From positions 342,014 through 406,013 of IMG/VR virus record IMGVR_UViG_3300028558_000016: 64,000 bases of DNA, one strand, 5' to 3'. Source of the stretch: a virus. Below, in pieces: positions 16,006 to 55,265 of this stretch. The notes under the pieces were generated by a model. It ran no database searches. It saw nothing but the letters and a program-made list of their open reading frames with translations, and was not told the origin of the DNA. Within the stretch, counting starts at the first letter, position 1. Each line of letters opens with the position of its first letter. Position numbers and translations under genes: made by a program.

Positions 16006-16079
16006 AGAACTCCAAGTGGGGATCGAACCCACGACCAAAGGTTTTAGAGACCTACGTTCTACCACTGAACTATTGGAGC
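16006..16079 (-). tRNA. tRNA with anticodon CUA (amber suppressor); G1-U72, U73
   Basis: Reverse complement folds as a cloverleaf. D-stem gttc/gaac, anticodon loop cuCUAaa, T-arm gtggg-ttcgatc-cccac. The 27:43 position is a U-U mismatch. Confidence 0.55.
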
Positions 16080-23787: not shown

Positions 23788-24070
23788 GGAAACTCTTAAG
23801 ACGGAAAAATTAGTGGTTCTCGATTTTTGGGCACCATGGTGTGGACCTTGCAGGACGATTGGTCCTGTCATAGAAGAACTACACACTGAGTATGGAGAAA
23901 ATGTGGTAATTGGAAAAGTCAACGTTGATGACAATTCTGAAGCTGCCACAAAATACGGAATCAGAAGCATTCCAGCAATTTACTTCATTAAGAATGGAGA
24001 AGTTGTTGACAAGATAATTGGCGCAGCTCCTAAAACGGAGTTTGTGGCAAGGATCGAGGCTAACAAATAA
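23756..24070 (+). CDS. trxA: thioredoxin
   Basis: WCGPC active site in a ~104 aa thioredoxin fold (VLDFWAPWCGPCRTIGPV). Confidence 0.8.
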   Translation: MAQEVTDSNLEETLKTEKLVVLDFWAPWCGPCRTIGPVIEELHTEYGENVVIGKVNVDDNSEAATKYGIRSIPAIYFIKNGEVVDKIIGAAPKTEFVARIEANK

Positions 24071-24071
24071 T

Positions 24072-24623
24072 ATGGCGAACAATAATTTCAAAAGGCCTTA
24101 CAGGCCAATTCAGAAACAAAGGGAACACAAGATCAATGAAGAGATCAGACATCCCAATGTGAGAGTTACAGGTGATGACATTGAGTCACAGGTTGTAACC
24201 ATCCAAGAGGCATTGCGCATGGCAAGGGAAGCTGGAGTTGATCTCGTTGAGATTGCTCCAAGCGCAAACCCACCTGTGTGCAAGATAATCGAATATGGAA
24301 AACTCCTTTACGAGAAAAAGAGAAAAGACAAGGAGAATAAAAAGAACCAAGATCAGGTTGAAATAAAAGAACTTCGATTGACACCAAGCACAGACGAACA
24401 TGATTTGCAATTCAAATGCAACAATGCAATGAAATGGTTAGCTGATGGAAATAAAGTGAAAGCCGTTGTAGTATTCAAAGGAAGAATGATCAAATATAAA
24501 GAGATGGGAGAAATCCTTTTGCTTAAACTTTCTGTGATGCTCGAAGACCATGGAAAAGTTGAACAGCTACCAAAACTCGAAGGCTTCAAAATGACCATGA
24601 TGGTCATTCCAAAAAAGAAGTAA
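24072..24623 (+). CDS. infC: translation initiation factor IF-3
   Basis: REAGVDLVEIAPSANPPVCKIIEYGKLLYEKKRK and the C-domain KAVVVFKGRM...LPKLEG closely follow the IF3 pattern. Start taken at the ATG at 24072 (MANNNF). Confidence 0.8.
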   Translation: MANNNFKRPYRPIQKQREHKINEEIRHPNVRVTGDDIESQVVTIQEALRMAREAGVDLVEIAPSANPPVCKIIEYGKLLYEKKRKDKENKKNQDQVEIKELRLTPSTDEHDLQFKCNNAMKWLADGNKVKAVVVFKGRMIKYKEMGEILLLKLSVMLEDHGKVEQLPKLEGFKMTMMVIPKKK

Positions 24624-25194: not shown

Positions 25195-26262
25195 ATGAAA
25201 AAATCTGTAATAAAAGTTTTTTATACAGAAAAACAAGTAAACACTAACGCAAACATAGAAGCTGCATCGAAATCAAAATCACCACTCAAACCGGTTCTTT
25301 TGATGAAAGCTTTAGATGTTCTTGGATATGGAAAAAATCTGGATATTGATCCAGATTTTTTTCCATTTAAAGACGAGGACTTCCTGCTTGCGCACACTAA
25401 AAATTACGTTGAAGCATTTTTCAATGGTGTTCAACCATTGTGTCAAAGTAATTTCTTACCGTGGAGCCAAGAATTGGCAGACTCAGTTCGTTACACTAAT
25501 GCGAGTTTGTATAACGCAATTAGATATGCTTACTTAAATCCTGACCAAGTTACATTAAGTCCTACATCAGGATTCCATCATGCAATGCCTCACAGAGGCG
25601 ATGGATTTTGTACATTCTCAGGACAGGTTATTGCTGCAGAAAAAATGTATCAAGAGTTTGGAGTGTCTGGTGCTGTTCTTGATTTGGATGGTCACACAGG
25701 AAATTCCATAGATGATGCTCGTGGTTTTGCTAAAACAATTGATTTAGCAATTCCGCACGAATATAATTTTGCTCAGCTTAAAGGTAGTGATAAACACTAT
25801 CTCGACTCTCTTTTAGAAGCAATGGATAAAATTGAAACAGGTGTATTGGAAAATAAAATACATTATCTAATGTGGTGCCACGGTGCAGACTCTCACGAGG
25901 ATGATGATTTTGGTGGACAGGTTGACACAGAATATTGGGTTAAATGTTCTGAAGCATTTTATGCTTGGGTGAATCAATTGGATGCTAAATTGATTGCAAT
26001 GGGAAGAAAACCTCTTCCAGTCATTTTAAGTTTATTTGGAGGTTATCGTGATGATGATTATTATTCAGTTATTTCGTTGCACATAAAAGATTTGACAACA
26101 TGTCTTAATCTTCTTTGTGGAGAAAACATAAATTATGATGTGAACGTAAAAGATAAACGTCCAACAATAAAACGTAAACCACCTGAAAAATGGTTTGATG
26201 GAATGCCGCTATCTCTTTTGAATGTTCTTTACCCAGGAAAATATGACGATATAAACACATAG
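25195..26262 (+). CDS. histone deacetylase/acetoin-utilisation (arginase-deacetylase superfamily) protein; TAG stop
   Basis: SGFHHAMPHRGDGFCTFSG and VLDLDGHTGNS resemble the HDAC motifs (GGFHHA..asGFC, DiDvHHGdG). Confidence 0.5.
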   Translation: MKKSVIKVFYTEKQVNTNANIEAASKSKSPLKPVLLMKALDVLGYGKNLDIDPDFFPFKDEDFLLAHTKNYVEAFFNGVQPLCQSNFLPWSQELADSVRYTNASLYNAIRYAYLNPDQVTLSPTSGFHHAMPHRGDGFCTFSGQVIAAEKMYQEFGVSGAVLDLDGHTGNSIDDARGFAKTIDLAIPHEYNFAQLKGSDKHYLDSLLEAMDKIETGVLENKIHYLMWCHGADSHEDDDFGGQVDTEYWVKCSEAFYAWVNQLDAKLIAMGRKPLPVILSLFGGYRDDDYYSVISLHIKDLTTCLNLLCGENINYDVNVKDKRPTIKRKPPEKWFDGMPLSLLNVLYPGKYDDINT

Positions 26263-26264
26263 GG

Positions 26265-26340
26265 CTTGGCCGGAATCAGGGGACTGCGGATTCTAAACCC
26301 GCTGAACCGTGGGTTCGACTCCCACCCAGGCTACCAATTA
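26265..26340 (+). tRNA. degenerate tRNA-like gene with encoded CCA; anticodon-position loop uuCUAaa (CUA)
   Basis: Canonical T-arm gtggg-ttcgact-cccac. Acceptor ggcttgg/ccaggct with A73 and CCA encoded. D-arm short and poorly paired. Anticodon stem has 4 bp plus a mismatch. Confidence 0.4.
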
Positions 26341-26701: not shown

Positions 26702-27013
26702 ATGTTTGATTTTCACCAAAAAGATACACACGCAACTAATTTCTCTATAGACAAAAAAGATCTATATGAGAAGGCAATGGAAATTTTTAAAAGCTATAAT
26801 CCAAAAATAAAAATATGGATTGAAGATACAGCATTTGATTCTTTCGGAAGACCCTATTATGACCATTTGAGTTTACATACAGATCAAGGTCATAAAGGTA
26901 AAATTAAATGGATAGGATTCTTTTCTACCATCAATAAAAGAAAGCTCCTGGCTGGAGAAATAAAACCAAAACAAACAATCAAAGAAAAACTTAAAGTATT
27001 TTTAAACCTATGA
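26702..27013 (+). CDS. hypothetical protein
   Basis: ORF. Confidence 0.35.
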   Translation: MFDFHQKDTHATNFSIDKKDLYEKAMEIFKSYNPKIKIWIEDTAFDSFGRPYYDHLSLHTDQGHKGKIKWIGFFSTINKRKLLAGEIKPKQTIKEKLKVFLNL

Positions 27014-27951
27014 AAACGTTAACAGAGAACAAGTCCAAAACTTTATCTAAGTTTTTGGAAACCCTAAGGGATAAAAGAGGATTTGACGCTGAAATTTATA
27101 CAGAAAGAAAAGCGTATGCAATAAATAAATTCTTTAGAGAAAATAATCTTGATTGTGCTGTCATTGGACTTTCTGGAGGTGTCGATAGTGCTGTTGCATT
27201 TTCTCTTCTCGAATTTGCTTCTCGCAGACCAGACTCACCTATCAAAAAAATTCTTGCATTAGCAATGCCAATATATGGAAATGGAACAACGAACCAAACT
27301 GATGCTACTAATAAAGCAACGAGGTTCATAACAAATTTTCTTGGTACAAAAAGAAAAAGGTACAATGATAAAGTAGAGTTTGAAATGTTTGATCTTTCGC
27401 ATGCCTACGAATCATATCAATATGGACATGAAACAGACGCATGGTCTAACGGACAATTAGCGAGCATTGTAAGAACTCCGTTTCTATATTATAATGCCGC
27501 ATTGTTACAAACAAAAGGATATAAATCAATTGTGGTTGGAACTACAAATCGTGATGAAGGTTCTTACATTGGCTTCTTTGGAAAAGCTTCTGACGCAATG
27601 GTCGATCTTCAACCGATAGCAGATATACACAAAAGCGAAGTGTATCAGGTTGCAAAACTTTTAGAAGTTAGTGATGAAATAATAAATGCAACTCCGGCTG
27701 GTGACGTTCACGATGGCAGAGTTGATGAAGAAATGATTGGTGCTCCATATTGGTTTCTTGAATTATTCCTTCTTCAAAAACAATACAAAGAGACTGCCAA
27801 GTTAGAAACGTTTGAAGACGGAGAAATTTATGGAAAATATTACGCATCAATAGAAAGCATTCACGAAAAAAATAAACACAAATACCAGGTAGGTTCACCA
27901 GCACATTTTATTGATGTGATGGAACGTAAAATAGAAGGAGGTTGGCAATGA
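27010..27951 (+). CDS. nadE: NH3-dependent NAD+ synthetase (NadE)-like PP-loop ATPase
   Basis: PP-loop GLSGGVDSAV. GTTNRDEGSYIGFFGKASDAMVDLQPIADIHKSEVYQVA matches the NadE tgNksE..vGY.T.yGD...P..dl.KtqV pattern. Confidence 0.6.
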   Translation: MKTLTENKSKTLSKFLETLRDKRGFDAEIYTERKAYAINKFFRENNLDCAVIGLSGGVDSAVAFSLLEFASRRPDSPIKKILALAMPIYGNGTTNQTDATNKATRFITNFLGTKRKRYNDKVEFEMFDLSHAYESYQYGHETDAWSNGQLASIVRTPFLYYNAALLQTKGYKSIVVGTTNRDEGSYIGFFGKASDAMVDLQPIADIHKSEVYQVAKLLEVSDEIINATPAGDVHDGRVDEEMIGAPYWFLELFLLQKQYKETAKLETFEDGEIYGKYYASIESIHEKNKHKYQVGSPAHFIDVMERKIEGGWQ

Positions 27952-28718
27952 TACAAATAGTTAATACAGAAAAACCAGCAATAGAAAAACTTCCAGGCGG
28001 TTGGGAGCCTGATTTCTCAATTCAGCTTAAAGAGACAACTGATTGTAACGAAGAAATGTTCAAGCGAGCATCAGTCTACACGAATTTATTTTCTTCAGAA
28101 GAATGTGATGATATAATAAAAAAATTCATGCAGTCTCCGCGATTTGAAAATGTAACCGTTCAAGGAATAAAAGATGTTCCAGACGATAGAATTGGAAGCA
28201 TAAGAACAACTGCATGGAGCACGAAAATTGCAGATGAGATATGGGAAAAGAAATTCAAATTCTTTATGCAAGACATCGCATGTAGCACAAAAACTCCAAC
28301 TGATTGGTGGCAAGGGGATAACGAAAGAAGATTATGGAAACCAGTTGGCATTTCTCCCATGTTGAGATTCATGAAGTATGAAAACGGTGGACAACATTAT
28401 GCTCATTACGATGCAGGCCACATATACAAGGATGATAAATTCAGAACACTTTGTTCGTTTGTAATGTATTTGACCACCAATGAAAATGGTGGAACCACGA
28501 GGTTCATAGAAGACCAACAGAGTGATCTTAATGAATGGGAAAGAAAACACGAAGATTGGCCGAGAGAATCAAGAGAAGATGAAGTGCTGTTCAGATCTAA
28601 ACCTATAAAAGGAAATGTTCTGGTATTTCCACACAGAATGTGCCATGACGTTGAAAAATATTTTGGGGACACTCCAAGGATTATTATAAGAGGTGATGTT
28701 TTATTTGAAGCAATATGA
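27942..28718 (+). CDS. hypothetical protein (possible 2OG-Fe(II) oxygenase-like)
   Basis: HYDAGH ... PHRMCH spacing. Confidence 0.3.
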   Translation: MAMIQIVNTEKPAIEKLPGGWEPDFSIQLKETTDCNEEMFKRASVYTNLFSSEECDDIIKKFMQSPRFENVTVQGIKDVPDDRIGSIRTTAWSTKIADEIWEKKFKFFMQDIACSTKTPTDWWQGDNERRLWKPVGISPMLRFMKYENGGQHYAHYDAGHIYKDDKFRTLCSFVMYLTTNENGGTTRFIEDQQSDLNEWERKHEDWPRESREDEVLFRSKPIKGNVLVFPHRMCHDVEKYFGDTPRIIIRGDVLFEAI

Positions 28719-28966
28719 ATTGGAAAGTAATATTCTTCAAAGAATATAATGATTGGGTTCCATATCAAAATGAATCTGTATGTGAATGTGTTGAAGAAGC
28801 TTGTCTTAAAAAAGTCTACAATCAATTAAATCCTGGAATTGAAGCTGACCATGATTATAAAATTGAATTTAAAGATGGTGAAATCGTTCATATTCTTTTT
28901 GGAGTAATAGTTTCTGGAAAAATTAAGTTTACTAATAAATTTGCTAATGAATTGGAAAGTAAATAG
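28715..28966 (+). CDS. small hypothetical protein (TAG stop)
   Basis: ORF. Its start context is duplicated at 28944. Confidence 0.25.
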   Translation: MNWKVIFFKEYNDWVPYQNESVCECVEEACLKKVYNQLNPGIEADHDYKIEFKDGEIVHILFGVIVSGKIKFTNKFANELESK

Positions 28967-30410
28967 AGATACATTTTATAAAGAACTTCTTCCAGTCCTT
29001 GGAGAAAAAGGAATTGCTGAAGCCGGTTTCTTTGAGGATGCTGCAACGAAAGACGAAGATGTCTTAAAGACCACAAAGGTTTTGTGCACACCTCTTTCTT
29101 TTTTAAAACCTGCAACAGGACATCCTTGCATATTGCTAACGACTGGTTCTTTTTGTCCATTGCATCCAGGCCACATCAATATGATGGAAAAAGCCAAGGA
29201 GCATCTTGAAAAAAATGGATACAATGTAATTGGTGGTTTCATTTCACCTGGACACGATGAATACATATCTGCCAAGAATAAAGAAAAAGCAATTCCAATA
29301 CACTATAGAATAAGAACCATAACTGAGATGATTAAAAACCACGATTGGCTTTCTGTCGATCCATGGGAAGGAATGTTCTGTAAGGTTGCTGTAAATTTCA
29401 CAGATGTTTATATAAGGCTTGAGGCATACATCAGCGAACACCTAAAGAAAGACATTCCAATATTCTTTGTTAGTGGTGGTGATAATGCGAGATTTGCTTT
29501 GACCTTCATGAAGAAAGGAAATTGTGTGATAGTTAACAGACCTCCGTATGACGATAAATTCGAACATTATAAAAAAGTTTTAAAGGATTGTCCTAACATC
29601 CATTTCGTTGAAGGTGGAATTCCTATATCTTCAACTGAATTAAGAAAGGAAGCTTTTGTTCCAGATGAAAAGAAAAACTTATTAATAAGAGTTGAAAACA
29701 CTGAGAAGAGAGGAGTTCTAAGAATAATGTATAAATATTTCAATAATATAGAAAAGAAGGAACTACACAGTCAGAAAAAACACTTTTATGGAAAGATGTC
29801 TCTTGGCGAGATGATAAGTCTTGACTCACTTCTTAAATCAGTGCACAACTTGAAAATATCAAGATCCTATGACATTTTCGGTGCAAAGAAGATGGGATTC
29901 ACAAATAGACCAGGAACTCCATCATTAGAGGAACAACTGTCTGAAATAGAGAATGGGGAATACACTCTGTTCGATGATGACATCCACAGTGGTTCAACCA
30001 TGAGATTTGCTAAATCGTTAATAGAGGGAACAGGCTCTAAGGTGAAAGAAGTGACATCATTAAACATCTCACCAGATGGTTTTGAGATTCTCGATTCAAG
30101 AGATTTTTTCATAGGAGGAAAGAACAATGGCCTTGTGATTAAAATGCCTGATGGAAAAAACGTCAGAGCTCCTTATGTTTATCCTTATGTTTGTCCGTTT
30201 ATTAGAGGCTCAATAGACAGTCCAATGCAGTTTTCAATAGATATTTGGAAGATGAACATGGATCTATTTGAAAAGACTAATCAAACATTGGGTGACATGC
30301 CATTCCTCCAAGACCTATTCAAAAGAGCTGGATTTAGTTTGACAGATTCAATGTATGACATCTGTAAATGGCATCATGATTATTTGGTTTTGGTACTTTT
30401 CACCAAATAA
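28941..30410 (+). CDS. fused nucleotidyltransferase (NMNAT-like) and type I phosphoribosyltransferase domain protein
   Basis: TGSFCPLHPGH ((H/T)xGH motif) and GGIPISSTELRKE (ISSTxxR) in the N-terminal half. C-terminal YTLFDDDIHSGSTM is a PRPP-binding motif. Confidence 0.55.
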   Translation: MLMNWKVNRDTFYKELLPVLGEKGIAEAGFFEDAATKDEDVLKTTKVLCTPLSFLKPATGHPCILLTTGSFCPLHPGHINMMEKAKEHLEKNGYNVIGGFISPGHDEYISAKNKEKAIPIHYRIRTITEMIKNHDWLSVDPWEGMFCKVAVNFTDVYIRLEAYISEHLKKDIPIFFVSGGDNARFALTFMKKGNCVIVNRPPYDDKFEHYKKVLKDCPNIHFVEGGIPISSTELRKEAFVPDEKKNLLIRVENTEKRGVLRIMYKYFNNIEKKELHSQKKHFYGKMSLGEMISLDSLLKSVHNLKISRSYDIFGAKKMGFTNRPGTPSLEEQLSEIENGEYTLFDDDIHSGSTMRFAKSLIEGTGSKVKEVTSLNISPDGFEILDSRDFFIGGKNNGLVIKMPDGKNVRAPYVYPYVCPFIRGSIDSPMQFSIDIWKMNMDLFEKTNQTLGDMPFLQDLFKRAGFSLTDSMYDICKWHHDYLVLVLFTK

Positions 30411-30489
30411 TTTTTCTATTTCTTTTATATGGCATCATGATTATTTGGTTTTGGTACTTTTCACCAAATAATTTTTCTATTTCTTTTAT
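30368..30489 (+). repeat. perfect 61-bp tandem direct duplication (2 copies)
   Basis: atggcatcatgattatttggttttggtacttttcaccaaataatttttctatttcttttat occurs at 30368-30428 and again at 30429-30489. Copy 1 spans the last codons and stop of the 28941 gene. Confidence 0.9.
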
Positions 30490-32264: not shown

Positions 32265-32337
32265 CGCCTCATAGCTCAGTTGGCAGAGCGTCGGTCTCTA
32301 AAACCGATGGTCGTGGGTTCGAACCCCACTGAGGCGG
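32265..32337 (+). tRNA. tRNA with anticodon CUA (amber suppressor); C1-G72, G73
   Basis: Clean cloverleaf. Acceptor cgcctca/tgaggcg. D gctc-agttggca-gagc. Anticodon stem tcggt/accga with loop cuCUAaa. T-arm gtggg-ttcgaac-cccac. Confidence 0.75.
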
Positions 32338-32392
32338 CAAATAAAAAATAAGTAATATGAAAAAGTAGATTAACATCCGAGGTCCTGATGAA

Positions 32393-39197: not shown

Positions 39198-39695
39198 ATG
39201 GGGAAGATAAAGAAGTTCAAGGAATTCAACGAGAAGGAATCTGAGTATACCGTTTATTCAAATAAGAAAGGTGGAAAATTCTGGGGTGACCAGGGTGCTG
39301 GTGTTCTTCCCATTTGCAGAAAAACAGGAAGAATTCTTGTTGCCATGAGAGGTGAACAGGTAAATGAGCCTCACACGTGGGGAATTTTTGGAGGAGCGAT
39401 GGACGAAGGAGAAACTCCAGAAGAATCTGCAAAAAGAGAATTAGTTGAAGAATCAGGATATACTGGAAAATTTGAAATCATTCCAGCTTTCATATATGTG
39501 TCTCTGGATCAAAAGTTCACATACAATAATTTCATAGGGATAGTCGACGAGGAATTCCAACCGGAATATGATTGGGAAACTGAATATGCTAAATGGATGA
39601 CTCTCGATGAATTGCTTAGTGCAAAGCCAAAACATTTCGGCTTAAAGAAGCTCTTGGACAAGAGCATGGATATAATCAAGAAATTTGCAAAGTAG
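39198..39695 (+). CDS. Nudix hydrolase (TAG stop followed directly by TAA)
   Basis: Nudix box GIFGGAMDEGETPEESAKRELVEESGY (Gx5Ex7REUxEExGU). Confidence 0.7.
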   Translation: MGKIKKFKEFNEKESEYTVYSNKKGGKFWGDQGAGVLPICRKTGRILVAMRGEQVNEPHTWGIFGGAMDEGETPEESAKRELVEESGYTGKFEIIPAFIYVSLDQKFTYNNFIGIVDEEFQPEYDWETEYAKWMTLDELLSAKPKHFGLKKLLDKSMDIIKKFAK

Positions 39696-44591: not shown

Positions 44592-44678
44592 GGGTAAGTT
44601 GCCGTAGTGGCCGAACGGTCCAGACTGTTAATCTGGTGAGAGCAATCTCCGTCGTGGGTTCGAATCCCACCTCGCCCT
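44592..44678 (+). tRNA. type II (long variable arm) tRNA with anticodon loop cuGUUaa; unusual combination
   Basis: Acceptor gggtaag/ctcgccc (one A-C mismatch). Long D-loop. Anticodon stem ccaga/tctgg. 17-nt variable arm. T-arm gtggg-ttcgaat-cccac. U73. Confidence 0.45.
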
Positions 44679-44685
44679 CAACTTT

Positions 44686-44758
44686 TGGAGATTAGCTCAG
44701 TTGGTAGAGCTGCTGGTTGTTAGCCAGATGGTCGCGGGTTCGATCCCTGCATCTCCAG
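44686..44758 (+). tRNA. tRNA-Asn(GUU)
   Basis: Cloverleaf with D gctc/gagc, anticodon loop uuGUUag, T gcggg-ttcgatc-cctgc. Confidence 0.65.
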
Positions 44759-44763
44759 CAAAT

Positions 44764-44835
44764 GCGCAAATAGCTCAGCGGTAGAGCAACCGGCTGTTAA
44801 CCGGTAGGTCGCAGGTTCGATCCCTGCTTTGCGCG
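44764..44835 (+). tRNA. tRNA-Asn(GUU)
   Basis: Acceptor gcgcaaa/tttgcgc. Anticodon stem accgg/ccggt with loop cuGUUaa. T gcagg-ttcgatc-cctgc. Confidence 0.7.
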
Positions 44836-45098
44836 CAAAAATAAAAGTAATGGAAACAAAAACATTTGGTGAATGGTTAGAATTTCTGCCATCAGAACAA
44901 TATCAAAGATTATCTTATGACGATAAGATGATTGCAACTATGAAATTGTTATTTGAGAAGGGTGAAAGAAACCCAAGTGCAATCACAGCAAAACTGTGGT
45001 ACTTGGGATTCAAGGAAGGAAGATTCACTGACATAAGAAAACTTGCTGAGCATCAATTCAAATTGTACTCACAAGCACAAGCAGAGAAAGTAAGATAA
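44829..45098 (+). CDS. hypothetical protein
   Basis: ORF lying between the two tRNA clusters. Confidence 0.35.
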   Translation: MRAKIKVMETKTFGEWLEFLPSEQYQRLSYDDKMIATMKLLFEKGERNPSAITAKLWYLGFKEGRFTDIRKLAEHQFKLYSQAQAEKVR

Positions 45099-45102
45099 AA
45101 AT

Positions 45103-45175
45103 TGTCCTGTGGTGTAACTGGCAACACGTGTGATTTTGGCTCATAAGAGTGCAGGTTCGAGCCCTGCCGGGACAA
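45103..45175 (+). tRNA. tRNA-Gln(UUG)
   Basis: U1-A72. D gtgt/acac. Anticodon stem tgtga/tcata with loop uuUUGgc. T gcagg-ttcgagc-cctgc. Confidence 0.65.
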
Positions 45176-45195
45176 CAGTTGAAATGGAAATATAT

Positions 45196-45279
45196 TGGGG
45201 ATCGCCGGAGTTGGAGAGCCGGGACAGTCTGTAAAACTGTTGACTTCGGTCTGAGTGGGTTCGAATCCCATGTCCCCAA
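45196..45279 (+). tRNA. tRNA-Tyr(GUA), type II
   Basis: Anticodon stem acagt/actgt with loop cuGUAaa. Variable arm with a gac/gtc stem. T gtggg-ttcgaat-cccat. A73. Confidence 0.65.
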
Positions 45280-45302
45280 CAGTTCTTTGAAAATAAATTT
45301 AT

Positions 45303-45417
45303 GGGGAAGTAGCTCAGTTGGCAGAGCAATAGAAAAAAGCGTATTCTGCCCAAGAATATTTACAGCAACACAAAAGTAAATCTGTGTGCGGCCGTTCGAA
45401 TCGGTCCTTCCCCACCA
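45303..45417 (+). ncRNA. tRNA-like gene with an insertion of about 40 nt and encoded CCA
   Basis: Acceptor ggggaag/cttcccc, then A and CCA. Canonical D-arm (gctc-agttggca-gagc) and T-arm (ggccg-ttcgaat-cggtc). The central 62 nt contain the hairpin tattct-gccca-agaata and no clean anticodon arm. Confidence 0.4.
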
Positions 45418-45418
45418 T

Positions 45419-45492
45419 GGGACATTCCATACTAATTGGTAAGTCACTCGGTTGTAACCCGAGAAATGGGGGTTCGAGTCCCTCATGTCCCA
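45419..45492 (+). tRNA. type I tRNA-like with anticodon loop uuGUAac (GUA) and a weak D-stem
   Basis: Perfect acceptor gggacat/atgtccc with A73. Anticodon stem ctcgg/ccgag. T ggggg-ttcgagt-ccctc. D-stem poorly paired. Confidence 0.45.
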
Positions 45493-45493
45493 C

Positions 45494-45577
45494 TGTACAG
45501 TATGCAAATTGGCGAAGCGAACAGATTTTGGATCTGTTGGAGTAATCCCGCTGCAGGTTCGAGCCCTGCCTGTATAA
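45494..45577 (+). tRNA. type II (Leu-like body, A73) tRNA with anticodon loop uuUUGga (UUG); unusual combination
   Basis: Acceptor tgtacag/ctgtata. D-loop aaattggcgaa. Anticodon stem acaga/tctgt. 15-nt variable arm with a gga/tcc stem. T gcagg-ttcgagc-cctgc. Confidence 0.45.
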
Positions 45578-45591
45578 CTAAAATTAAAAAC

Positions 45592-46656
45592 ATGGAACAA
45601 TTTCCACATAACGAAGAAGTAGACTTTAATAAAAAGTTGAATGTAAAATTTGGAATAGATCCAACTGCAGATAGATTGCATTTGGGACATTTGATACCTT
45701 TGCGATTTGCGAAGAAGATGTTAGACAATGGACATAACCTTGACATAGTGTTAGGAACGTTCACTGCGCAGCTTGGAGATCCTTCTGGAAAAGATTCAAT
45801 GAGACCTATATTGGACTCTGAAACTACTAAAGACAATGCAATTGCATTATTGCCTATCATCAGAAGGATTTTAAAGAAAGATTTTAATCTTCATTTCAAT
45901 CATGAATGGTTCAAAAGAATGAATGCGATTGATATGATCAACATTCTTTCTAAGTTTACAGCAAATCAATTGTTGTCGAGAGACTCTTTTCAAAAAAGAA
46001 TTTCAAATGAAGATGGAATTGGTATGCATGAATTAACTGTTCCTATTTTGCAAGGATTTGATTCTGTTCATTTGAAAACAGATCTCGAAATAGGAGGCAA
46101 CGATCAATTGTTTAACTTTAAAATAACAAGAGATCTGCAAAGAGCATTTAATCAAAAGCCGGAGATTTGCATGTTGATGCCAATAATCAATGGAACTGAT
46201 GGGAGAAAAATGAGCAAGACGTTTAAGAATTGCATTTTTCTCGATGACAGTCCCGTAGATGTTTTTGGGAAAACGATGTCCATATCTGATGAGTTGATGA
46301 AAGAATGGTTCATGGTTTTTATGGATGAATCAATAGGTCATCCAATGGAAGCAAAGAAAAAACTCGCATTTCAAATAACAAAAGAAGTGTGGGACGAAGA
46401 TAATGCTAAAATTGCATTGGAACATTTTGAAAGAGTAATACAAAAGAAGAATGTACCGGTAGAAATTAAGGACATTAAAGACACAGATATTTTAAAAGTC
46501 ATTATGGAATTACGTAAATGTTCTGCCACAGAAGCAAGAAGATTATTGTCGCAAGGAGCAGTTAAAGTCAATGATGAAAAAGCATTAGAAGAAAAGACCT
46601 TATCATCTGGAGACATTGTAAAGGTTGGTAAGCTGAACTTTGCTAAGATAATGTAA
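45592..46656 (+). CDS. tyrS: tyrosyl-tRNA synthetase
   Basis: FGIDPTADRLHLGHLIPL (HIGH region of the TyrRS type). KMSKT motif. C-terminal S4-like segment LLSQGAVKVNDEK...GDIVKVGK. Start taken at the ATG at 45592; the longer ORF overlaps the tRNAs. Confidence 0.75.
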   Translation: MEQFPHNEEVDFNKKLNVKFGIDPTADRLHLGHLIPLRFAKKMLDNGHNLDIVLGTFTAQLGDPSGKDSMRPILDSETTKDNAIALLPIIRRILKKDFNLHFNHEWFKRMNAIDMINILSKFTANQLLSRDSFQKRISNEDGIGMHELTVPILQGFDSVHLKTDLEIGGNDQLFNFKITRDLQRAFNQKPEICMLMPIINGTDGRKMSKTFKNCIFLDDSPVDVFGKTMSISDELMKEWFMVFMDESIGHPMEAKKKLAFQITKEVWDEDNAKIALEHFERVIQKKNVPVEIKDIKDTDILKVIMELRKCSATEARRLLSQGAVKVNDEKALEEKTLSSGDIVKVGKLNFAKIM

Positions 46657-46676
46657 AAAGAATTTTGTATATTTAC

Positions 46677-46749
46677 TGTCTCGTAGCGCAACTGGCAGAG
46701 CGCCTGATTCTGGATCAGGAGGTTGGAGGTTCGAGCCCTCCCGAGACAA
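46677..46749 (+). tRNA. tRNA-Gln(CUG)
   Basis: U1-A72 acceptor tgtctcg/cgagaca. Anticodon stem cctga/tcagg with loop uuCUGga. T ggagg-ttcgagc-cctcc. Confidence 0.65.
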
Positions 46750-46768
46750 CAATTAAAACATAAATAAT

Positions 46769-48328
46769 ATGTCAAGAAAAGTAAGAGTAAGATTTGCCCC
46801 GTCACCGACAGGGCCACTTCACATGGGTGGCGTAAGAACCGCCTTGTATAATTATCTCTTTGCTAAAAAGCACGGAGGTGATTTCATTTTAAGAATAGAA
46901 GATACAGACAAAGACAGATTTGTTCCTGGCGCAGAAGCTTACATCATTGAAGCTTTGAATTGGTGTGGAATAACTCCTAACGAAGGAATAGATGGAAATT
47001 CTGTTCTTGATACATACAAGCAATCAAAAAGAAATGAGGCTGGAATATACAATCCTTATGTTGCAAAATTAATTGCAGAAGGAAATGCATATTACGCATT
47101 TGATACTAAAGAAGATCTTGACGCATTGAGAACTTCTGTTTCTGAAAAAAGAAAAGCAGGATTAAAAGTAAGAGAATTCGCTTATGGTGTTTTCACAAGA
47201 GAATTATTGAACAACAGCTTGAACATGACTGCCGATGAATTGAAAGCAAGATTGGATGCTGGAATTCCTTATGTCATTCGTTTGAAGATGCCTAAGGAAG
47301 TTGAAATTAAATTCGTTGATTTGATCAGAGGTGCTGTCACTGTAAAAAGTCACACCATCGATGATAAGGTTATATTCAAGAGCGATGGACTTCCAACATA
47401 CCATTTGGCAAATGTTGTTGACGATCACTTGATGGACATTTCTCACGTCATTAGAGGTGAGGAGTGGTTGCCATCGGCACCGTTGCACGTCATGCTATAC
47501 AAGATGTTAGGTTGGGAAGATACCATGCCTGAGTTTGCACACCTTCCTTTGATCATGGGACCAAGCGGTAAATTGAGCAAGAGAGATGGAGATACATTGG
47601 GATTTCCTGTATATCCTTTAAAGTATACAGATCCAAAAACATCTGAGACATCGAGCGGTTACCGTGAGAATGGTTTCTTGCCAAGTGCATTCAATAACAT
47701 GGTTGCATTTCTTGGTTGGAATCCAGGTGGCACCGATGAGGTATTCACAATGGATGAAATGATCGATAAATTCTCTTTGGATAGAGTAGGAAAATCAGGA
47801 GCTAAATTCGATTTGAAGAAGGCTAATTGGTTCAATCACCAACACATGATGAAGTCTGATAATGATGACTTGGCAAAATTATGGATCAGCAATGGAGGAT
47901 TATACAATGGAGCCATGGGTGTTTGGTCTACTGATGCGACAAAACAACGTGTTGATTCATTTGAATATGTTTCAAAGGTTTGTGGATTGCTTAAAGAGAA
48001 GGTTTCTAACATCAATGATTTTTGGAATTCTGGAAAATATTTCTTTATTGCGCCTGAGCCAAGTCTTGGAACAGAACATTCTTCGTTCTTGGCAGAAGTA
48101 ATTGCAAACATAACTAAGGATGAAGTGTTCAATCACGATTCTTTAAGAGCTGTGTTTGATGCTTCAGTTAAGGCAACCGGTGTTGACGCAAGAGAGGCTG
48201 GAATGGTTTTAAGGATTGCTGTAACAGGAATGAAAGTTGGTCCACCTTTATTTGATGCAATGGAATTGATAGGTAAAAATGAATCAATAAACAGAATAGC
48301 ATCTAACGTGGTAGTCAATCATGAGTAA
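46769..48328 (+). CDS. gltX: glutamyl-tRNA synthetase
   Basis: VRFAPSPTGPLHMGGVRTALYNYLFAKKHGG (HIGH region). KLSKR motif. 519 aa, typical GluRS architecture. Confidence 0.75.
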   Translation: MSRKVRVRFAPSPTGPLHMGGVRTALYNYLFAKKHGGDFILRIEDTDKDRFVPGAEAYIIEALNWCGITPNEGIDGNSVLDTYKQSKRNEAGIYNPYVAKLIAEGNAYYAFDTKEDLDALRTSVSEKRKAGLKVREFAYGVFTRELLNNSLNMTADELKARLDAGIPYVIRLKMPKEVEIKFVDLIRGAVTVKSHTIDDKVIFKSDGLPTYHLANVVDDHLMDISHVIRGEEWLPSAPLHVMLYKMLGWEDTMPEFAHLPLIMGPSGKLSKRDGDTLGFPVYPLKYTDPKTSETSSGYRENGFLPSAFNNMVAFLGWNPGGTDEVFTMDEMIDKFSLDRVGKSGAKFDLKKANWFNHQHMMKSDNDDLAKLWISNGGLYNGAMGVWSTDATKQRVDSFEYVSKVCGLLKEKVSNINDFWNSGKYFFIAPEPSLGTEHSSFLAEVIANITKDEVFNHDSLRAVFDASVKATGVDAREAGMVLRIAVTGMKVGPPLFDAMELIGKNESINRIASNVVVNHE

Positions 48329-49385
48329 TATGCCAATAGGAATCCAAGCAATGGGTCCAGCCGAAGTAATAACGGAAATGTTTCTTCGTCCTGGATCCAT
48401 TTCTGCTTATAGAGAGCAGATGGATCTGCTTGATAAAAACAAGGAACATATTTCTGTTCACGATGGATTTTCTATAATAACTTTCTGGGAACCTGCAACG
48501 AAGGCTTTCAATGCCGGCTGGAAGATGAGAGTTGTTTATGGCGAAGTAAAAGAAAAGAAATATTTTGTAAAAGATAATTGGAAAAACAAAACAGTTTATT
48601 CTGGTGCAAGGCCTGAATGCGAAAAATACGTTCAGGGAAATAACACATATCAATTAAATTATTCTCGTTTGACAATCGAAATTAATTCAACTCTCGATGA
48701 TAAGTTGGATGAATTAAAAAAGATTATTTCTGACTCAACAAAGCCAGATGAGAACGAATTGCGTTTTGCAAAGGCTACATCTAATTGGATCAAGGGTCCT
48801 GTCATGGGTTGGTTGAATGATAACAAGCTTGATTTCACCACTCGTTCTAAACCATCTCATCATAAATCATTAGTCACTGGAAATCTTTTCGACTATGAAA
48901 AATATTCTGCCATTGATGAAGAGAAGTGGTGGCCTAAAGATTCTCCTGATGCAAAACTTTATTTGCCTCTTCCTAAAGACGAATATCCTTACACAGTCGT
49001 GTATTCTGAAGAGGAGAGTAATTTTCCAATAAAATCTGAACATTTAAAAGAATTAATAAGCTTGGTTGAATTTACAGATCTTATTAGTTTCTCTACTGCT
49101 TCCAAAACTGTTTTTCCTGAGATGATCAAAAATCCAGATGAAAAACCTTGGGATATAATTCAAAGATTAAATTTGATGCAAAGCAATGATGATGATGCCA
49201 TCAAACAAATGGCCAAAGATGCTTTAGCAAAATATCCCGACAAGGTTGAAGAATATAGGAAAGGAAAGAAGGGAGTTCTCAGCCTGTTCATGGGCGAAGT
49301 AATGAAAGCCGGTAAAGGAAAAGTAAATCCGCAAATGGCTTCAGAAATAGTAAAAAATCTTTTGGAAGAAAAGGAGGGAGCATAA
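48321..49385 (+). CDS. protein with a C-terminal GatB/YqeY-like domain
   Basis: C-terminus EEYRKGKKGVLSLFMGEVMKAGKGKVNPQMASEIVKNLL matches the GatB/YqeY pattern (GkekalgfLvGqvMk.tkGkanP..v.e.l). The N-terminal ~280 aa are unrecognised. Confidence 0.5.
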   Translation: MSNMPIGIQAMGPAEVITEMFLRPGSISAYREQMDLLDKNKEHISVHDGFSIITFWEPATKAFNAGWKMRVVYGEVKEKKYFVKDNWKNKTVYSGARPECEKYVQGNNTYQLNYSRLTIEINSTLDDKLDELKKIISDSTKPDENELRFAKATSNWIKGPVMGWLNDNKLDFTTRSKPSHHKSLVTGNLFDYEKYSAIDEEKWWPKDSPDAKLYLPLPKDEYPYTVVYSEEESNFPIKSEHLKELISLVEFTDLISFSTASKTVFPEMIKNPDEKPWDIIQRLNLMQSNDDDAIKQMAKDALAKYPDKVEEYRKGKKGVLSLFMGEVMKAGKGKVNPQMASEIVKNLLEEKEGA

Positions 49386-49399
49386 CTGCTCCCACTTTC

Positions 49400-49588
49400 T
49401 TATTTAACTGTAGATGTTGCAACAACTGTAGGAGTTGCAATCACTGAAGCAGCTTCAACTGCTTTACAAGTATCAACACACGCTTTCGTTGTGTCACAAA
49501 CTTCATTAACAACTTCAACTTCCGTTTTAGGAGTTCCACATGCAGCAAACATCGTCGTTGCAATAATTAAAAGTACAATCTTTTTCAT
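49400..49588 (-). CDS. small lipoprotein/secreted peptide
   Basis: Signal peptide MKKIVLLIIATTMFAACG with a lipobox-like Cys. Confidence 0.4.
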   Translation of the reverse strand: MKKIVLLIIATTMFAACGTPKTEVEVVNEVCDTTKACVDTCKAVEAASVIATPTVVATSTVK

Positions 49589-49703
49589 AGATTTTGTTGG
49601 GTTTTTAGTTTAGTTCCATATTAAACCGGGTCACGGTCAGGCTATATATAAATCACTGAGAAGTTAGTTTCAATCGATATATACAGCACCACAATCATTT
49701 CCA

Positions 49704-49901
49704 TTGAAGCCAAAATTTAAAATCGGACAAACCATTTATTACATGTATCTCAATTGGATATGCAAATCTAAAGTGAAAAATCATTATGAAAAAGATGGGA
49801 AGATCTTTTATTCTGATGACAGAAATGATGAAATATTAGAAAAATTCGTATTTGATAATAAGCCCGAACTGATTGATTTTCATATAAATAGAACAAAATA
49901 A
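49704..49901 (+). CDS. hypothetical protein
   Basis: Short ORF. Confidence 0.3.
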   Translation: MKPKFKIGQTIYYMYLNWICKSKVKNHYEKDGKIFYSDDRNDEILEKFVFDNKPELIDFHINRTK

Positions 49902-49961
49902 ATAAATAATTTTTCTGGTTTAAAAATAAGTGCCTATATTTGTATTCAAGTTGAAAATCTT

Positions 49962-50160
49962 TAAGGGTTGCATTCAGCATAACAAATCATCTACAAAATG
50001 AAACCAAAAGCAATCTGAAGAATTTCAATGAAACAAAAAAGAAAAAAGATATATAACATAAGATATTAAAAAAAGGATGCGTTCAGCATAACAAACTTAC
50101 AATTGAAAAGTAAACCAAGGCATCCTGAAAAATTTTAAAGAAATGAAAAAAGTAAATAAC
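49962..50160 (+). repeat. imperfect tandem direct repeat of about 110 bp (2 copies) in non-coding DNA
   Basis: Units g(c/t)attcagcataacaaa ... aaaccaa ... tgaa.aattt.aa.gaaa ... aaaaaag start near 49965 and again near 50075. Confidence 0.5.
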
Positions 50161-50257
50161 ATAATCCCGCAGTTTCAGTTTGTGGTGCCGTTTAGCGGTT
50201 CCAACGGGCGTGTTATGTACTTTGACGATTTGTAAAAGAAAACGTTAGACAACAGAA

Positions 50258-50287
50258 AGCCCGGTGGAAACATCGGGCTTTTTTTAT
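50258..50287 (+). terminator. rho-independent terminator
   Basis: agcccg-gtggaaacat-cgggct hairpin followed by tttttttt. Confidence 0.6.
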
Positions 50288-50298
50288 TTGCAAAATTT

Positions 50299-50371
50299 CG
50301 GGGTGTAGCGCAGTTGGTAGCGCGCGTGGTTTGGGGCCATGAGGTCGTCGGTTCGAGCCCGGCTACCCCGA
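50299..50371 (+). tRNA. tRNA-Pro(UGG)
   Basis: C1-G72 acceptor cggggtg/taccccg with A73. D gcgc/gcgc. Anticodon stem cgtgg/ccatg with loop uuUGGgg. Confidence 0.65.
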
Positions 50372-50498
50372 CAGAAAAAGTCCTGTGATTGACAAGAGTG
50401 TGTAAACCTTACAGGAAACGCACGGCTCCGCAGAGGAGTTAGAACTGGAATTGAGGGATACCAGATTGTTGATCGAATGGAAAATTGTTCTTTGAAAT

Positions 50499-50572
50499 GT
50501 GGGAGTAGCTGAGTTGGTTCAAGCGCCAGACTGAAAATCTGGAGTAGATCGGTTCGAGACCGATGTCTCACA
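50499..50572 (+). tRNA. tRNA-Phe(GAA)
   Basis: Anticodon stem ccaga/tctgg with loop cuGAAaa. T atcgg-ttcgaga-ccgat. A73. Confidence 0.6.
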
Positions 50573-50620
50573 CGAGTTTTGTTTTTCCAAGGTTTTGTTT
50601 TTCACAAATCAAAACCACCA

Positions 50621-50693
50621 CGAGGTGTGGCGAAGTTGGTATCGCGCCTGGTTTGGGACCAGGAGATCGCAGGTTCGAGCCCTGTCACCTCGA
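50621..50693 (+). tRNA. tRNA-Pro(UGG)
   Basis: Acceptor cgaggtg/cacctcg (C1-G72) with A73. Anticodon stem cctgg/ccagg with loop uuUGGga. Confidence 0.7.
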
Positions 50694-50704
50694 CAAATGG
50701 AAAT

Positions 50705-50777
50705 GTGGATGTAGCTCAGTTGGTAGAGCACTGCCCTGAAGAGGCAGGTGTCGGGGGTTCGAATCCCTCCATCCACA
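50705..50777 (+). tRNA. tRNA-Phe(GAA)
   Basis: Acceptor gtggatg/catccac. D gctc/gagc. Anticodon stem ctgcc/ggcag with loop cuGAAga. Confidence 0.7.
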
Positions 50778-50784
50778 CGGCGCT

Positions 50785-50803
50785 GTCCCATGAGGGACTT
50801 TTC
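50785..50803 (+). terminator. short hairpin terminator after the tRNA cluster
   Basis: gtccc-atga-gggac hairpin followed by ttttcg. Confidence 0.4.
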
Positions 50804-51042
50804 GTTGAGTATCTGCGGTTGAAATACCGATACAGTCAGACGTGACTTCAAGATGAAACTAAACAGAAAAATGGAAACACTACGGTAAAAGTCCGGGAGG
50901 CAGCGGCAGAATTAAATAGGAAACACCAACAACAGACTAAAAGTTGTTTTGTACGAAGCCCGCTTAAGAAGCGTCGTAGCAATGTCAAGGTGAGTTACAA
51001 AAGAGTCCGTGGGGACACAAAAAACTTTTCCTATTTTAAAAT

Positions 51043-51117
51043 TGACGCATAGCTCAGTTGGTTCAGAGCATCTGCCTTACAAGCAGAGGGTCGGGGGTTC
51101 GAATCCCTCTGCGTCAA
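51043..51117 (+). tRNA. tRNA-Val(UAC)
   Basis: Acceptor tgacgca/tgcgtca. Anticodon stem tctgc/gcaga with loop cuUACaa. T ggggg-ttcgaat-ccctc. Confidence 0.7.
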
Positions 51118-51118
51118 C

Positions 51119-51436
51119 ATGGAAAAGAAATTACAGGACAGCTTGGATGCCTTTAAAAATTTAATGGATAACATGTCTGAGGAAGAATTAGCAGAAATAA
51201 AAGCAAAGTATTTCACAGAAGATGAAATACCAGAAGGCTGGGTTGACATTGAAGAACATTTGCCAATGGTTACATGTCAAGATTTTCTCGACAACGATGC
51301 AATAGTGAAATTCATCAAGGTCAAGGATAAAGACGGAAATATTTTTGATGATCAAGTTGGAGACCATCACATGTGGTACTACAGAGCAAAGGAAGCTGGA
51401 ATAACACATTGGTGGAATGAAGTTGAAGAAGAATAA
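51119..51436 (+). CDS. hypothetical acidic protein
   Basis: ORF starts 2 nt after the tRNA-Val. Confidence 0.4.
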   Translation: MEKKLQDSLDAFKNLMDNMSEEELAEIKAKYFTEDEIPEGWVDIEEHLPMVTCQDFLDNDAIVKFIKVKDKDGNIFDDQVGDHHMWYYRAKEAGITHWWNEVEEE

Positions 51437-51441
51437 AACAT

Positions 51442-51517
51442 TGCCCTATCGCTTAGTTGGTTTTAAAGCGTCTCGCTTACAACGAGAAGATCATCGGTTC
51501 GACTCCGGTTAGGGCAA
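51442..51517 (+). tRNA. tRNA-Val(UAC)
   Basis: Acceptor tgcccta/tagggca. Anticodon stem tctcg/cgaga with loop cuUACaa. T atcgg-ttcgact-ccggt. Confidence 0.7.
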
Positions 51518-51518
51518 C

Positions 51519-51776
51519 ATGAAAGATGAAAGTAAAATAACAACTCAGCAATTCAAATTTATTTCTGAATTGCTTTGGGGTGGAGTTCCCGTTGACCGGG
51601 TACAAGCTGAAGAGTCTGCGATGTTCAAAGCGAACGCGCCAAAAATATTAGAGGAATATCCTCTATTGGATAAATCATTTTTTGAAAAACATAGTAAAAA
51701 CAAAGGTTATGAAATTGTCAAAAGTAAAAATATACAAGATGAACAAGGTAGGCAAGGAGAAATTGTCGACGGCTGA
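51519..51776 (+). CDS. hypothetical protein
   Basis: ORF. Confidence 0.35.
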   Translation: MKDESKITTQQFKFISELLWGGVPVDRVQAEESAMFKANAPKILEEYPLLDKSFFEKHSKNKGYEIVKSKNIQDEQGRQGEIVDG

Positions 51777-52839: not shown

Positions 52840-52851
52840 AAAGTAGAAATA

Positions 52852-54990: not shown

Positions 54991-55178
54991 TTTTGCGTAT
55001 ATTGCACTTGTCTCATTGAAAGATAGCACAACGTGGGAGCGGGCTTTAAAAAGCTCCTTTTCAGAAACGATCCATAAATTAGTGCGTCAATAGCAAGCCA
55101 ATAAAGATTCGGATGCATGGACCGAAAGATTGGAGGTGGGGTGGAGAATCGGGAATCCCCCTTTCAATGAAGACACAA

Positions 55179-55252: not shown

Positions 55253-55265
55253 CTAAAATAAAAAT

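Follow-up and report, generated by a model that had tools for sequence, protein, structure and literature searches.

An NMNAT-phosphoribosyltransferase-like fusion protein, a NadE-like synthetase and a 2-oxoglutarate oxygenase as a candidate NAD+ synthesis module of a probable huge phage

Can a phage make nicotinamide adenine dinucleotide (NAD+) with a set of genes unlike the pathways described so far? This question is raised by positions 27010-30489 of a viral DNA stretch of 64,000 nucleotides (IMG/VR record IMGVR_UViG_3300028558_000016, positions 342,014 to 406,013; the whole stretch is called the window below). The original prediction saw here a two-gene NAD+ module, consisting of a NadE-like synthetase and a protein in which a nicotinamide mononucleotide adenylyltransferase (NMNAT) is fused to a phosphoribosyltransferase (PRT or PRTase). 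Both genes are present, and the open reading frames (ORFs), all quoted motifs and the perfect 61-bp duplication at 30368-30489 stand where it placed them, but a 2-oxoglutarate (2OG)-Fe(II) oxygenase gene (27942/27948-28718) and an 83-aa ORF (28715-28966) between the two genes had been overlooked. The ORF list gives four tightly packed ORFs on the + strand of this region and, as read from the sequence, their first three junctions are stop/start overlaps of ATGA type, including the overlap of the NadE TGA stop with the ATG of the oxygenase. The explanation favored overall, to which we give a probability of about 0.45, is a cassette in which three translationally coupled genes encode four activities, and which would form a self-contained NAD+ synthesis module acquired from bacteria by a probable huge phage.

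In total 59 related loci were compared, with IMG/VR and the species-representative bacterial genomes contributing 29 each. The three window proteins were located in them by tblastn, and the counts given here refer to the 27 bacterial loci with a near-full-length fusion gene and to 26 viral loci. NadE, oxygenase and fusion genes are adjacent and collinear in 20 of the 27 bacterial loci (Leptospira weilii, L. sarikeiensis, Polyangiales/Myxococcota, Cellvibrio, other Gammaproteobacteria and Actinomycetes) and likewise in several jumbo-phage contigs. Of the 27 bacterial loci, 26 have the oxygenase, and in the remaining one the contig opens within the fusion gene; the Saprospiraceae/Bacteroidota loci hold the oxygenase and the fusion, with no NadE nearby. 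Both NadE and the oxygenase accompany the fusion in 7/26 viral loci, NadE only in 10/26 and neither within 8 kb in 8/26; fusion relatives lie on IMG/VR contigs of 170-465 kb. When all ORFs of the 59 loci were clustered, no neighbor apart from the three cassette genes occurred in more than nine loci.

The same domains are also met in single polypeptides. A hidden Markov model (HMM) search with the profile of the C-terminal domain of the fusion against 1.84 billion representative proteins returned 1,009 clusters, 757 of them at E <= 1e-10 (representative clusters of the PRT-like family, about 1,000, are defined at 50% identity). Most are NMNAT-plus-PRT-like fusions of ~480-520 aa, and the PRT-like domain is nearly always fused to NMNAT. 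Nine clusters of 1,048-1,208 aa, mutually at most 50% identical, carry NadE, 2OG oxygenase, NMNAT and PRT-like domains in one polypeptide, in the order of the genes in the window (as assigned by Pfam and by BLASTP to the window proteins), and one in-frame ORF in a Myxococcales locus (L027) carries all four. Other architectures are oxygenase, NMNAT and PRT-like domain, as well as NMNAT, PRT-like domain and GNAT; in P0299 (705 aa) the GNAT acetyltransferase is C-terminal, and in P0323 (825 aa) an insertion of ~110 aa separates the NMNAT and PRT-like domains. Because of the nine one-polypeptide four-domain clusters and the collinearity, it is very unlikely that the oxygenase is a bystander: it is an integral fourth component of the cassette, and the four domains serve one process. 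The idea of an unrelated neighbor or a protein hydroxylase was rejected on these same grounds.

The surroundings of the relatives point to NAD metabolism. The Leptospira weilii cassette is directly preceded by an NrtR regulator (NUDIX plus NrtR_WHD, 6.7e-25), and NrtR-like genes flank the cassette in L008 and L012 (a Polyangiaceae and a gammaproteobacterial locus). NrtR is an ADP-ribose-responsive repressor of NAD genes. In a Cellvibrio metagenome-assembled genome (L010, 62-9440) the order is TonB-dependent receptor, PnuC, NadR-like, NadV, a small 2OG oxygenase, two unannotated ORFs, NadE, oxygenase and fusion. The small enzyme is a second 2OG-Fe(II) oxygenase of 217 aa, and a dioxygenase is thereby tied to NAD-salvage genes twice in this locus. 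NadV is found near the cassette in L008, L010, L011, L012 and the phage contig L047. Collinearity, four-domain polypeptides, NrtR and the PnuC-NadR-NadV neighborhood make it very likely that the module belongs to NAD biosynthesis or salvage. The cassette is a widespread bacterial NAD-metabolism module and no phage invention. Within the species-representative genome set only two Leptospira species have it, as would fit an accessory island gained by horizontal transfer. In L. weilii (L017, 9991-17292) the NrtR-controlled cassette is followed by ORFs of 941 aa and 684 aa without assigned function, and NCBI labels the Leptospira fusion protein as 'cytidylyltransferase' only.

The original prediction called for HMM and structure comparison of each domain, and the outcome is graded: NadE exceeds curated cut-offs, the NMNAT domain has the expected fold and motifs but misses TIGR00482, and the PRT-like domain has the expected fold but no Pfam family. 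The 313-aa NadE-like protein matches Pfam PF02540 (NAD_synthase, 2.2e-29, 102.7 bits vs a cut-off of 21), TIGR00552 (100.2 bits, cut-off 63.65) and PHROG 11189 'NAD synthetase' (1.7e-37), and the SGGxDS motif of the PP-loop is present as SGGVDS at residues 55-60. The score for the full-length equivalog NF010587 (117.7) is below its cut-off of 255, so this NadE belongs to a divergent subfamily. Its nearest sequence relatives in the PDB are 2e18 and then 3fiu (Francisella NMN synthetase, 1.1e-15), and the closest solved relatives are short NH3-dependent NadE enzymes. The NadE identity proposed before is thus confirmed by the curated HMM cut-offs (PF02540, TIGR00552). A tRNA thiolase or QueC, its stated alternative, fails, with tRNA-thiolase and QueC matches at E > 1e-3 and MnmA/GuaA matches only at E > 5e-4 vs 1e-28 for NadE; tRNA-thiolase, GMP-synthase and QueC-type PP-loop matches are all at least 20 orders of magnitude weaker. 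The gene encodes a short NH3-dependent NAD synthetase, for which amidation of nicotinic acid adenine dinucleotide (NaAD) or nicotinic acid mononucleotide (NaMN) is predicted from its sequence.

The oxygenase between NadE and the fusion matches Pfam PF13640 (3.8e-8), and its structure model reaches a pLDDT of 95.3. The HxD part of the iron triad lies within HYAHYD (28395-28412), with HRMCHD and RIIIRGD further downstream; among 48 oxygenase homologues the HxD...H triad does not vary, nor do the arginines that bind 2OG. With this triad, a 2OG-binding Arg/Lys and the double-stranded beta-helix fold, the protein has the features of the P4H/PKHD clade. It is a 2OG/Fe(II) dioxygenase of the P4H clade in which the site that binds the metal and 2OG is intact.

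The AlphaFold2 model of the 487-aa fusion, built from a 53-sequence alignment, has a pLDDT of 94.1 and a pTM of 0.92. A 100% identical database protein (P0001, 487 aa), encoded on a 482,156-bp contig, begins at the ATG at 28947, two codons downstream of the TTG from which the ORF is listed (28941, 489 aa). The N-terminal 60 residues match no Pfam family at E <= 10. The following domain has the NMNAT fold and both NMNAT motifs, GxFxPxHxGH as GSFCPLHPGH (residues 67-76) and ISSTxxR as ISSTELR (residues 227-233), with G67, P71, H73, G75, H76 and S229 invariant in the 53 fusion homologues. It also retains VDPWE, the nicotinamide-site motif of eukaryotic NMNAT. Only the general Pfam CTP_transf_like cut-off is passed, and the equivalog threshold of TIGR00482 is missed (60.9 bits vs 112.45). 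By Pfam, the fusion has no kinase domain.

The C-terminal domain of the model shows the five-stranded alpha/beta core of PRT folds. The loop for phosphoribosyl pyrophosphate (PRPP), defined as a hydrophobic strand and two acidic residues followed by x3-(S/T)-G-x-T, is found in YTLFDDDIHSGST. In the 53 sequences D343, D345 and G349 of this loop are invariant and T351 is nearly so, and divergent phage clades retain a textbook PRPP loop (VLVEDDSATGET). Beyond the loop, the charged residues D293, R306, D309, D383 and D386 are invariant, with R321 and E380 nearly so. The best match of the domain profile is APRT at E = 0.04, with Prs, ComF and OPRT weaker, all of them aligned on the PRPP-binding loop; the HMMER alignment places the loop of the fusion on that of APRT, and APRT-like enzymes are the nearest structural relatives. 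With the type I PRTases (APRT, HGXPRT, OPRT, XPRT) the domain shares the alpha/beta core and a PRPP loop with an acidic pair followed by S-G-x-T. It differs from them in lying below detection by PF00156, in invariant acids that form DxD, in being nearly always NMNAT-fused and in motifs of its own (ISLD, ISRxYDxFG, NRPG, EILDxRDF and RAPYxYPYVCP, together with a C-terminal helical extension). The alpha/beta-barrel fold of type II PRTases was not found, nor were matches to the family HMMs of PncB, NadV/Nampt and NadC. The earlier assignment to type I PRTases therefore holds for the fold and the PRPP loop, without a Pfam family behind it and with the pyridine-base role as a proposal: the domain is type I PRT-like and divergent, and its PRPP loop is conserved. 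An ordinary purine/pyrimidine PRTase is unsupported, as no curated family matches.

The proposed pathway would run as follows. The PRT-like domain would convert PRPP and a pyridine base into a pyridine mononucleotide, the fused NMNAT would adenylylate it, and NadE would amidate the deamido dinucleotide to NAD+. The favored base would be nicotinate, because no other partner is as constant as the NaAD-amidating NadE, and because loci with PnuC/NadR (nicotinamide riboside) and NadV (nicotinamide) lack a deamidated route. The oxygenase would add one O2-dependent step to the same pathway; our guess, of low confidence, is that it may generate the usable base from a modified pyridine. Chemical precedents are N-demethylation of the AlkB type and side-chain oxidation of the thymine-7-hydroxylase type. 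In the phage, the module may increase NAD+ or bring it back over the course of a long infection, also when host NADase defenses fire. That the PRT-like domain is a catalytic pyridine PRTase is given a little less than an even chance, and Preiss-Handler chemistry specifically from nicotinate is more tentative. The three Preiss-Handler steps named by the original prediction stand as far as the NadE family membership and the NMNAT motifs and fold are concerned, and the nicotinate-PRTase step is hypothetical, since known pyridine PRTases are of type II. The boldest version is a four-step NAD+ route ('NARP4') with the first type I-fold pyridine PRTase, a dioxygenase supplying the base (e.g. by oxidative N-demethylation of trigonelline or 1-methylnicotinamide), a radical SAM substitute in anaerobe-associated phages, and huge phages outrunning NAD+-depleting immunity; taken as a whole, it is distinctly unlikely.

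Several observations weigh against this pathway. To our knowledge, all characterized nicotinate, nicotinamide and quinolinate PRTases have the unrelated type II fold, and we know of no type I PRTase that uses a pyridine base. The structural similarity of the PRT-like domain to PRTases is only moderate, the isolated domain matches no Pfam family (including Pribosyltran PF00156) at E <= 10, and the second canonical Asp of the PRPP motif (D344) varies among some family members. Where a canonical NadV co-occurs, nicotinamide can be salvaged without the PRT-like domain. A nicotinamidase (PncA) was not found in the cassette, and the nicotinamide set free by NADases would therefore be kept out of a nicotinate route unless the host provides PncA. 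Finally, standard Preiss-Handler chemistry needs no dioxygenase; as this enzyme has no place there, the pathway as stated is incomplete.

Some of these points lead to another reading, which we regard as unlikely: the module is NAD-related, and its C-terminal domain is not a pyridine PRTase. The domain would then be a PRPP- or nucleotide-binding regulator, or a Prs-/Adps-like enzyme acting on ribose-5-phosphate or ADP-ribose; the NMNAT would use NMN or NaMN from the host or from NadV, and NadE would complete host-derived NaAD. Type I PRT folds do include non-PRTases such as PRPP synthetase, PurR and PyrR (also ComF), and the missing Pribosyltran match fits with this, but the many conserved charged residues beyond the PRPP loop (Asp, Arg and Glu) look more like a substrate-specific active site than like a sensor. 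A Prs-like activity has a precedent in NARP1, where a phage Prs-like fold acts on ADP-ribose, and Prs and ComF are among the weak matches of the domain; yet Prs requires two PRT-like domains and the model shows one. The cassette stands beside NadV in five loci, which speaks for this reading; against it, the NMNAT fusion itself is most simply explained by consecutive steps.

It is rather improbable that the cassette makes a non-canonical pyridine or carboxamide dinucleotide, with the oxygenase oxidizing the base, the mono- or the dinucleotide and the product serving as a modified cofactor, a signal or a NADase-resistant NAD analogue. This would give a role to a dioxygenase that is obligatorily linked or fused to the other domains and has none in known NAD synthesis, and it would agree with NadE and NMNAT scores below the NCBIfam equivalog cut-offs (NF010587 and TIGR00482). 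The NMNAT retains the nicotinamide-site motif VDPWE, however, such a metabolite is not known, and NrtR control together with PnuC, NadR and NadV neighbors indicates ordinary NAD homeostasis. A further point in favor of a non-canonical product is a radical SAM gene standing in the place of the oxygenase in one phage clade. The contigs of this clade (L048-L058) have no 2OG oxygenase, and a 291-aa unclassified radical SAM gene overlaps the NadE start (e.g. L049, 5820-6695); the contigs are human-associated, at least two of them coming from Human Microbiome Project samples as judged by IMG identifiers. The radical SAM gene may be an anaerobic replacement of the oxygenase in this one clade of closely related contigs, and the idea is kept as a lead only because its support is confined to L048-L058. 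A general substitution by radical SAM enzymes was rejected: the genes near cassettes differ in family (RaSEA-like in L047, MoaA/viperin-like in L005 and L008, unclassified in L049).

A defense system was considered as well. NadE and the fusion gave no match to PADLOC models; for the oxygenase the sole match was the generic CRISPR-Cas-associated '2OG' model PDLC01653 (5.3e-11), and the 83-aa ORF gave a marginal match to PDC-M39A (E = 0.0087). Being generic or marginal, these matches are not taken as evidence. A role against NADases is plausible by analogy with NARP1, NARP2 and NARP3, and a general NAD boost in a long infection is an equally good reading.

The phage NAD+ pathways described so far are NARP1 (Adps and Namat), NARP2 (Nampt and Nmnat/NadM) and NARP3 (PnuC and NadR), and in a systematic survey of viral systems for NAD+ and ADP-ribose the only synthesis enzymes are NadV, NadM and NadR. 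The domain architecture of the cassette matches none of the three pathways, which bears out the earlier remark that the fusion looks unlike the NadV/NMNAT pairs of phages. A viral two-domain NMNAT-PRT-like architecture was not found in INPHARED or BFVD, megablast with the region and tblastn with the fusion gave no match in 50,697 GenBank phages, and literature searches returned no description of a NadE-2OG-NMNAT-PRT cassette within the library searched. Salvage of the NARP2/KVP40 type (NadV/Nampt and NMNAT, NadM-Nudix) would be similar in that a phage-encoded, PRPP-dependent synthesis of a pyridine mononucleotide is followed by adenylylation; the NMNAT step is homologous at the level of the HIGH nucleotidyltransferase superfamily, and some relatives of the cassette adjoin NadV. 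In contrast to NARP2, the NMNAT of the cassette is of eukaryotic type and fused to a type I PRT-like domain, not to Nudix, and NadE and the 2OG oxygenase are obligate partners. The NARP2 pairing is absent from the window: the NMNAT is present, and tblastn with NadV revealed no Nampt homologue in the 64 kb (no match at E <= 1). No Namat homologue was found in the window either, and NMN_transporter (PnuC) and AAA_28 (NadR kinase) are not among the matches listed (25/29 Pfam families, 53 other window ORFs). With NARP1 and NARP3 the cassette would share the presumed purpose of rebuilding NAD+ in infected cells, and the Adps of NARP1 also has a PRT-type (Prs-like) fold, but the domain set is different.

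The Preiss-Handler pathway (PncB, NadD, NadE) would be matched in its three formal chemistries, and the NadE of the cassette is a true family member. PncB, however, is a type II, ATP-coupled enzyme, whereas the cassette has a type I-like, putative PRTase, and the extra dioxygenase has no counterpart. The Francisella NadE*/NadM route (NaMN to NMN to NAD) likewise combines a short NH3-dependent NadE with an NMN-type adenylyltransferase; the cassette differs from it in having no Nudix domain and in having a PRT-like domain and an oxygenase, and the order of steps is not inferable from the cassette.

Table 1. Positions of the genes, domains and repeats of the cassette in the window.
Feature	Position	Strand	Remarks
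NadE-like NH3-dependent NAD synthetase gene	27010..27951	+	313 aa; PP-loop SGGVDS 27172-27189
2OG-Fe(II) oxygenase gene, prolyl-4-hydroxylase/PKHD clade	27948..28718	+	256 aa from ATG; 258 aa from TTG at 27942
83-aa ORF	28715..28966	+	no detectable homologues
Left copy of 16-bp direct repeat ATGAATTGGAAAGTAA flanking 232-bp insertion	28715..28730	+	direct reading of sequence
Right copy of 16-bp direct repeat ATGAATTGGAAAGTAA, true start of fusion gene	28947..28962	+	direct reading of sequence; P0001 start
Fusion gene (helical segment residues 1-57, NMNAT, PRT-like)	28947..30410	+	487 aa; 169 full-length homologues
Eukaryote-type NMN/NaMN adenylyltransferase domain, ~residues 58-240	29118..29666	+	GSFCPLHPGH 29145-29174; VDPWEG; ISSTELR 29625-29645
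Type I phosphoribosyltransferase-like domain, ~residues 244-487	29676..30407	+	PRPP loop LFDDDIHSGSTM 29967-30002; conserved NRPG loop 29904-29918
Copy 1 of 61-bp tandem duplication	30368..30428	+	Tandem Repeats Finder; last 13 sense codons, TAA stop and 18 nt of 3' flank
Copy 2 of 61-bp tandem duplication	30429..30489	+	Tandem Repeats Finder; intergenic, 27 nt upstream of next ORF (start 30517)

The fusion gene bears scars at both ends (Table 1). At its 3' end Tandem Repeats Finder reports a period of 61 with 2.0 copies, 100% matches and no indels. The TAA stop (30408-30410) lies inside copy 1, leaving the protein unchanged by the duplication. Two adjacent exact copies of a 61-mer cannot be a product of chance. 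The duplication also occurs in a second assembly (L001, an ENA contig of 2,971 bp, whose reads are possibly not independent) and is absent from an 86%-identical relative (L002) with a single, shorter 3' end; there the fusion gene terminates in ...WHHDYLLSLIS*, and the intergenic spacer falls 41 nt short of the length predicted for one copy. Perfect copies, presence in two assemblies and absence from L002 support a recent duplication spanning the stop codon, as had been proposed. Exact-match searches with 43 nt of the repeat unit among IMG/VR and JGI metagenome contigs found nothing. Each 61-bp unit contains a hairpin with a 10-bp stem (ATTATTTGGT/ACCAAATAAT) followed by a T-rich run, and the RNA fold of the region has a z of -4.8; only 2 of the pairs in the hairpin are G-C, and it is not called by the consensus terminator scan.

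At the 5' end the direct repeat ATGAATTGGAAAGTAA (16 bp, at 28715 and 28947) brackets a 232-bp insert. This insert creates an orphan 83-aa ORF, which reuses the duplicated first 16 nt of the fusion gene and hence opens with the first five residues of the fusion protein (MNWKV). The ORF has no Pfam or PHROG match, and L002 has neither it nor the insert, with just 6 nt separating the oxygenase from the fusion there; the ORF is probably outside the conserved module. Both scars are most readily taken for recent events of illegitimate recombination or slippage with no demonstrated function; the 61-bp duplication is recent and lineage-specific and probably selectively neutral, only doubling a terminator-like hairpin. 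That it is an assembly artifact, or a functional element (double terminator, regulatory repeat), is very improbable: assembler error would also give perfect identity and each unit does hold a hairpin and T-run, but a typical read is longer than the 122 bp of the repeat, which two assemblies contain, a second independent scar at the same gene argues for real recombination, the terminator scan does not call the hairpin, and absence from the close relative means that the repeat is not conserved.

The window probably comes from a huge phage, as judged by its gene content (18 tRNA genes, IF3, several aminoacyl-tRNA synthetases, mostly ORFans), which is of the kind known from huge phages, and by the IMG/VR relatives. 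Its G+C content is 36.5%, and three of the 18 tRNA genes are amber suppressors with a CTA anticodon (ARAGORN 'Pyl'; 16007-16079 on the - strand, 26263-26336 and 32265-32338 on the + strand). Among the 57 ORFs of at least 150 aa, stop codons are TAG in 2, TAA in 42 and TGA in 13, which suggests TAG avoidance or recoding in the genome. At 44592-55253 lie 14 tRNA genes in a dispersed array, with Asn, Gln and Val represented three times each, Pro and Phe twice and Tyr once. Besides IF3 (24018-24623), the genes related to translation encode an RRM protein, GatB/YqeY, the peptidyl-tRNA hydrolase PTH2 and domains of aminoacyl-tRNA synthetases, among them a class II core and class I domains of Glu/Gln, Met and Trp/Tyr type. 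For most of the large ORFs, which reach 1,307 aa, there is no match in PHROGs, ten large ORFs received no structural-protein annotation from PHROGs, and no capsid or terminase gene was found in the window.

Two more window genes are linked to NAD/ADP-ribose metabolism: one for a NADAR-domain protein (61903-62400, + strand, 166 aa, Pfam 2.1e-23, motifs YLSNF and GENNLGKILMAIR) and one for a Nudix hydrolase (39198-39695, + strand, 165 aa, 8.4e-17). A gene similar to histone deacetylases and acetylpolyamine amidohydrolases (25195-26262, + strand, Pfam Hist_deacetyl 5.5e-16) is followed directly by the suppressor tRNA at 26263-26336, which lies 674 nt upstream of the cassette. This gene was rejected as a module member, being found upstream of the cassette only in the window and in the close relative L002. 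The window also encodes thioredoxin, an AlkB-type 2OG-FeII_Oxy_2 protein (3e-15), an RNA ligase (1.3e-10), an S24 peptidase and two matches to R2K-clade ATP-grasp.

NAD+ depletion is among the commonest outcomes of antiphage immunity (Thoeris, SIR2-HerA, DSR, CBASS and Pycsar variants). Phage-borne NAD+ synthesis is already known; what is new is its build from two recognizable enzymes together with a PRT-like domain and an oxygenase. The cassette would be a fourth phage NAD+ counter-pathway after NARP1, NARP2 and NARP3, made from different parts, and it presents a concrete, cloneable three-gene target for enzymology and phage-defense assays. It is common to huge phages and diverse bacteria, and in bacteria its control is apparently NAD-specific. 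Should the PRT-like domain prove to be a pyridine PRTase, the rule that such enzymes are type II would be broken. If the dioxygenase acts in the pathway, as the gene fusions indicate, NAD metabolism would have an O2-dependent step that is missing from current maps, and such a step could bear on unassigned reactions, e.g. the entry of trigonelline into NAD synthesis.

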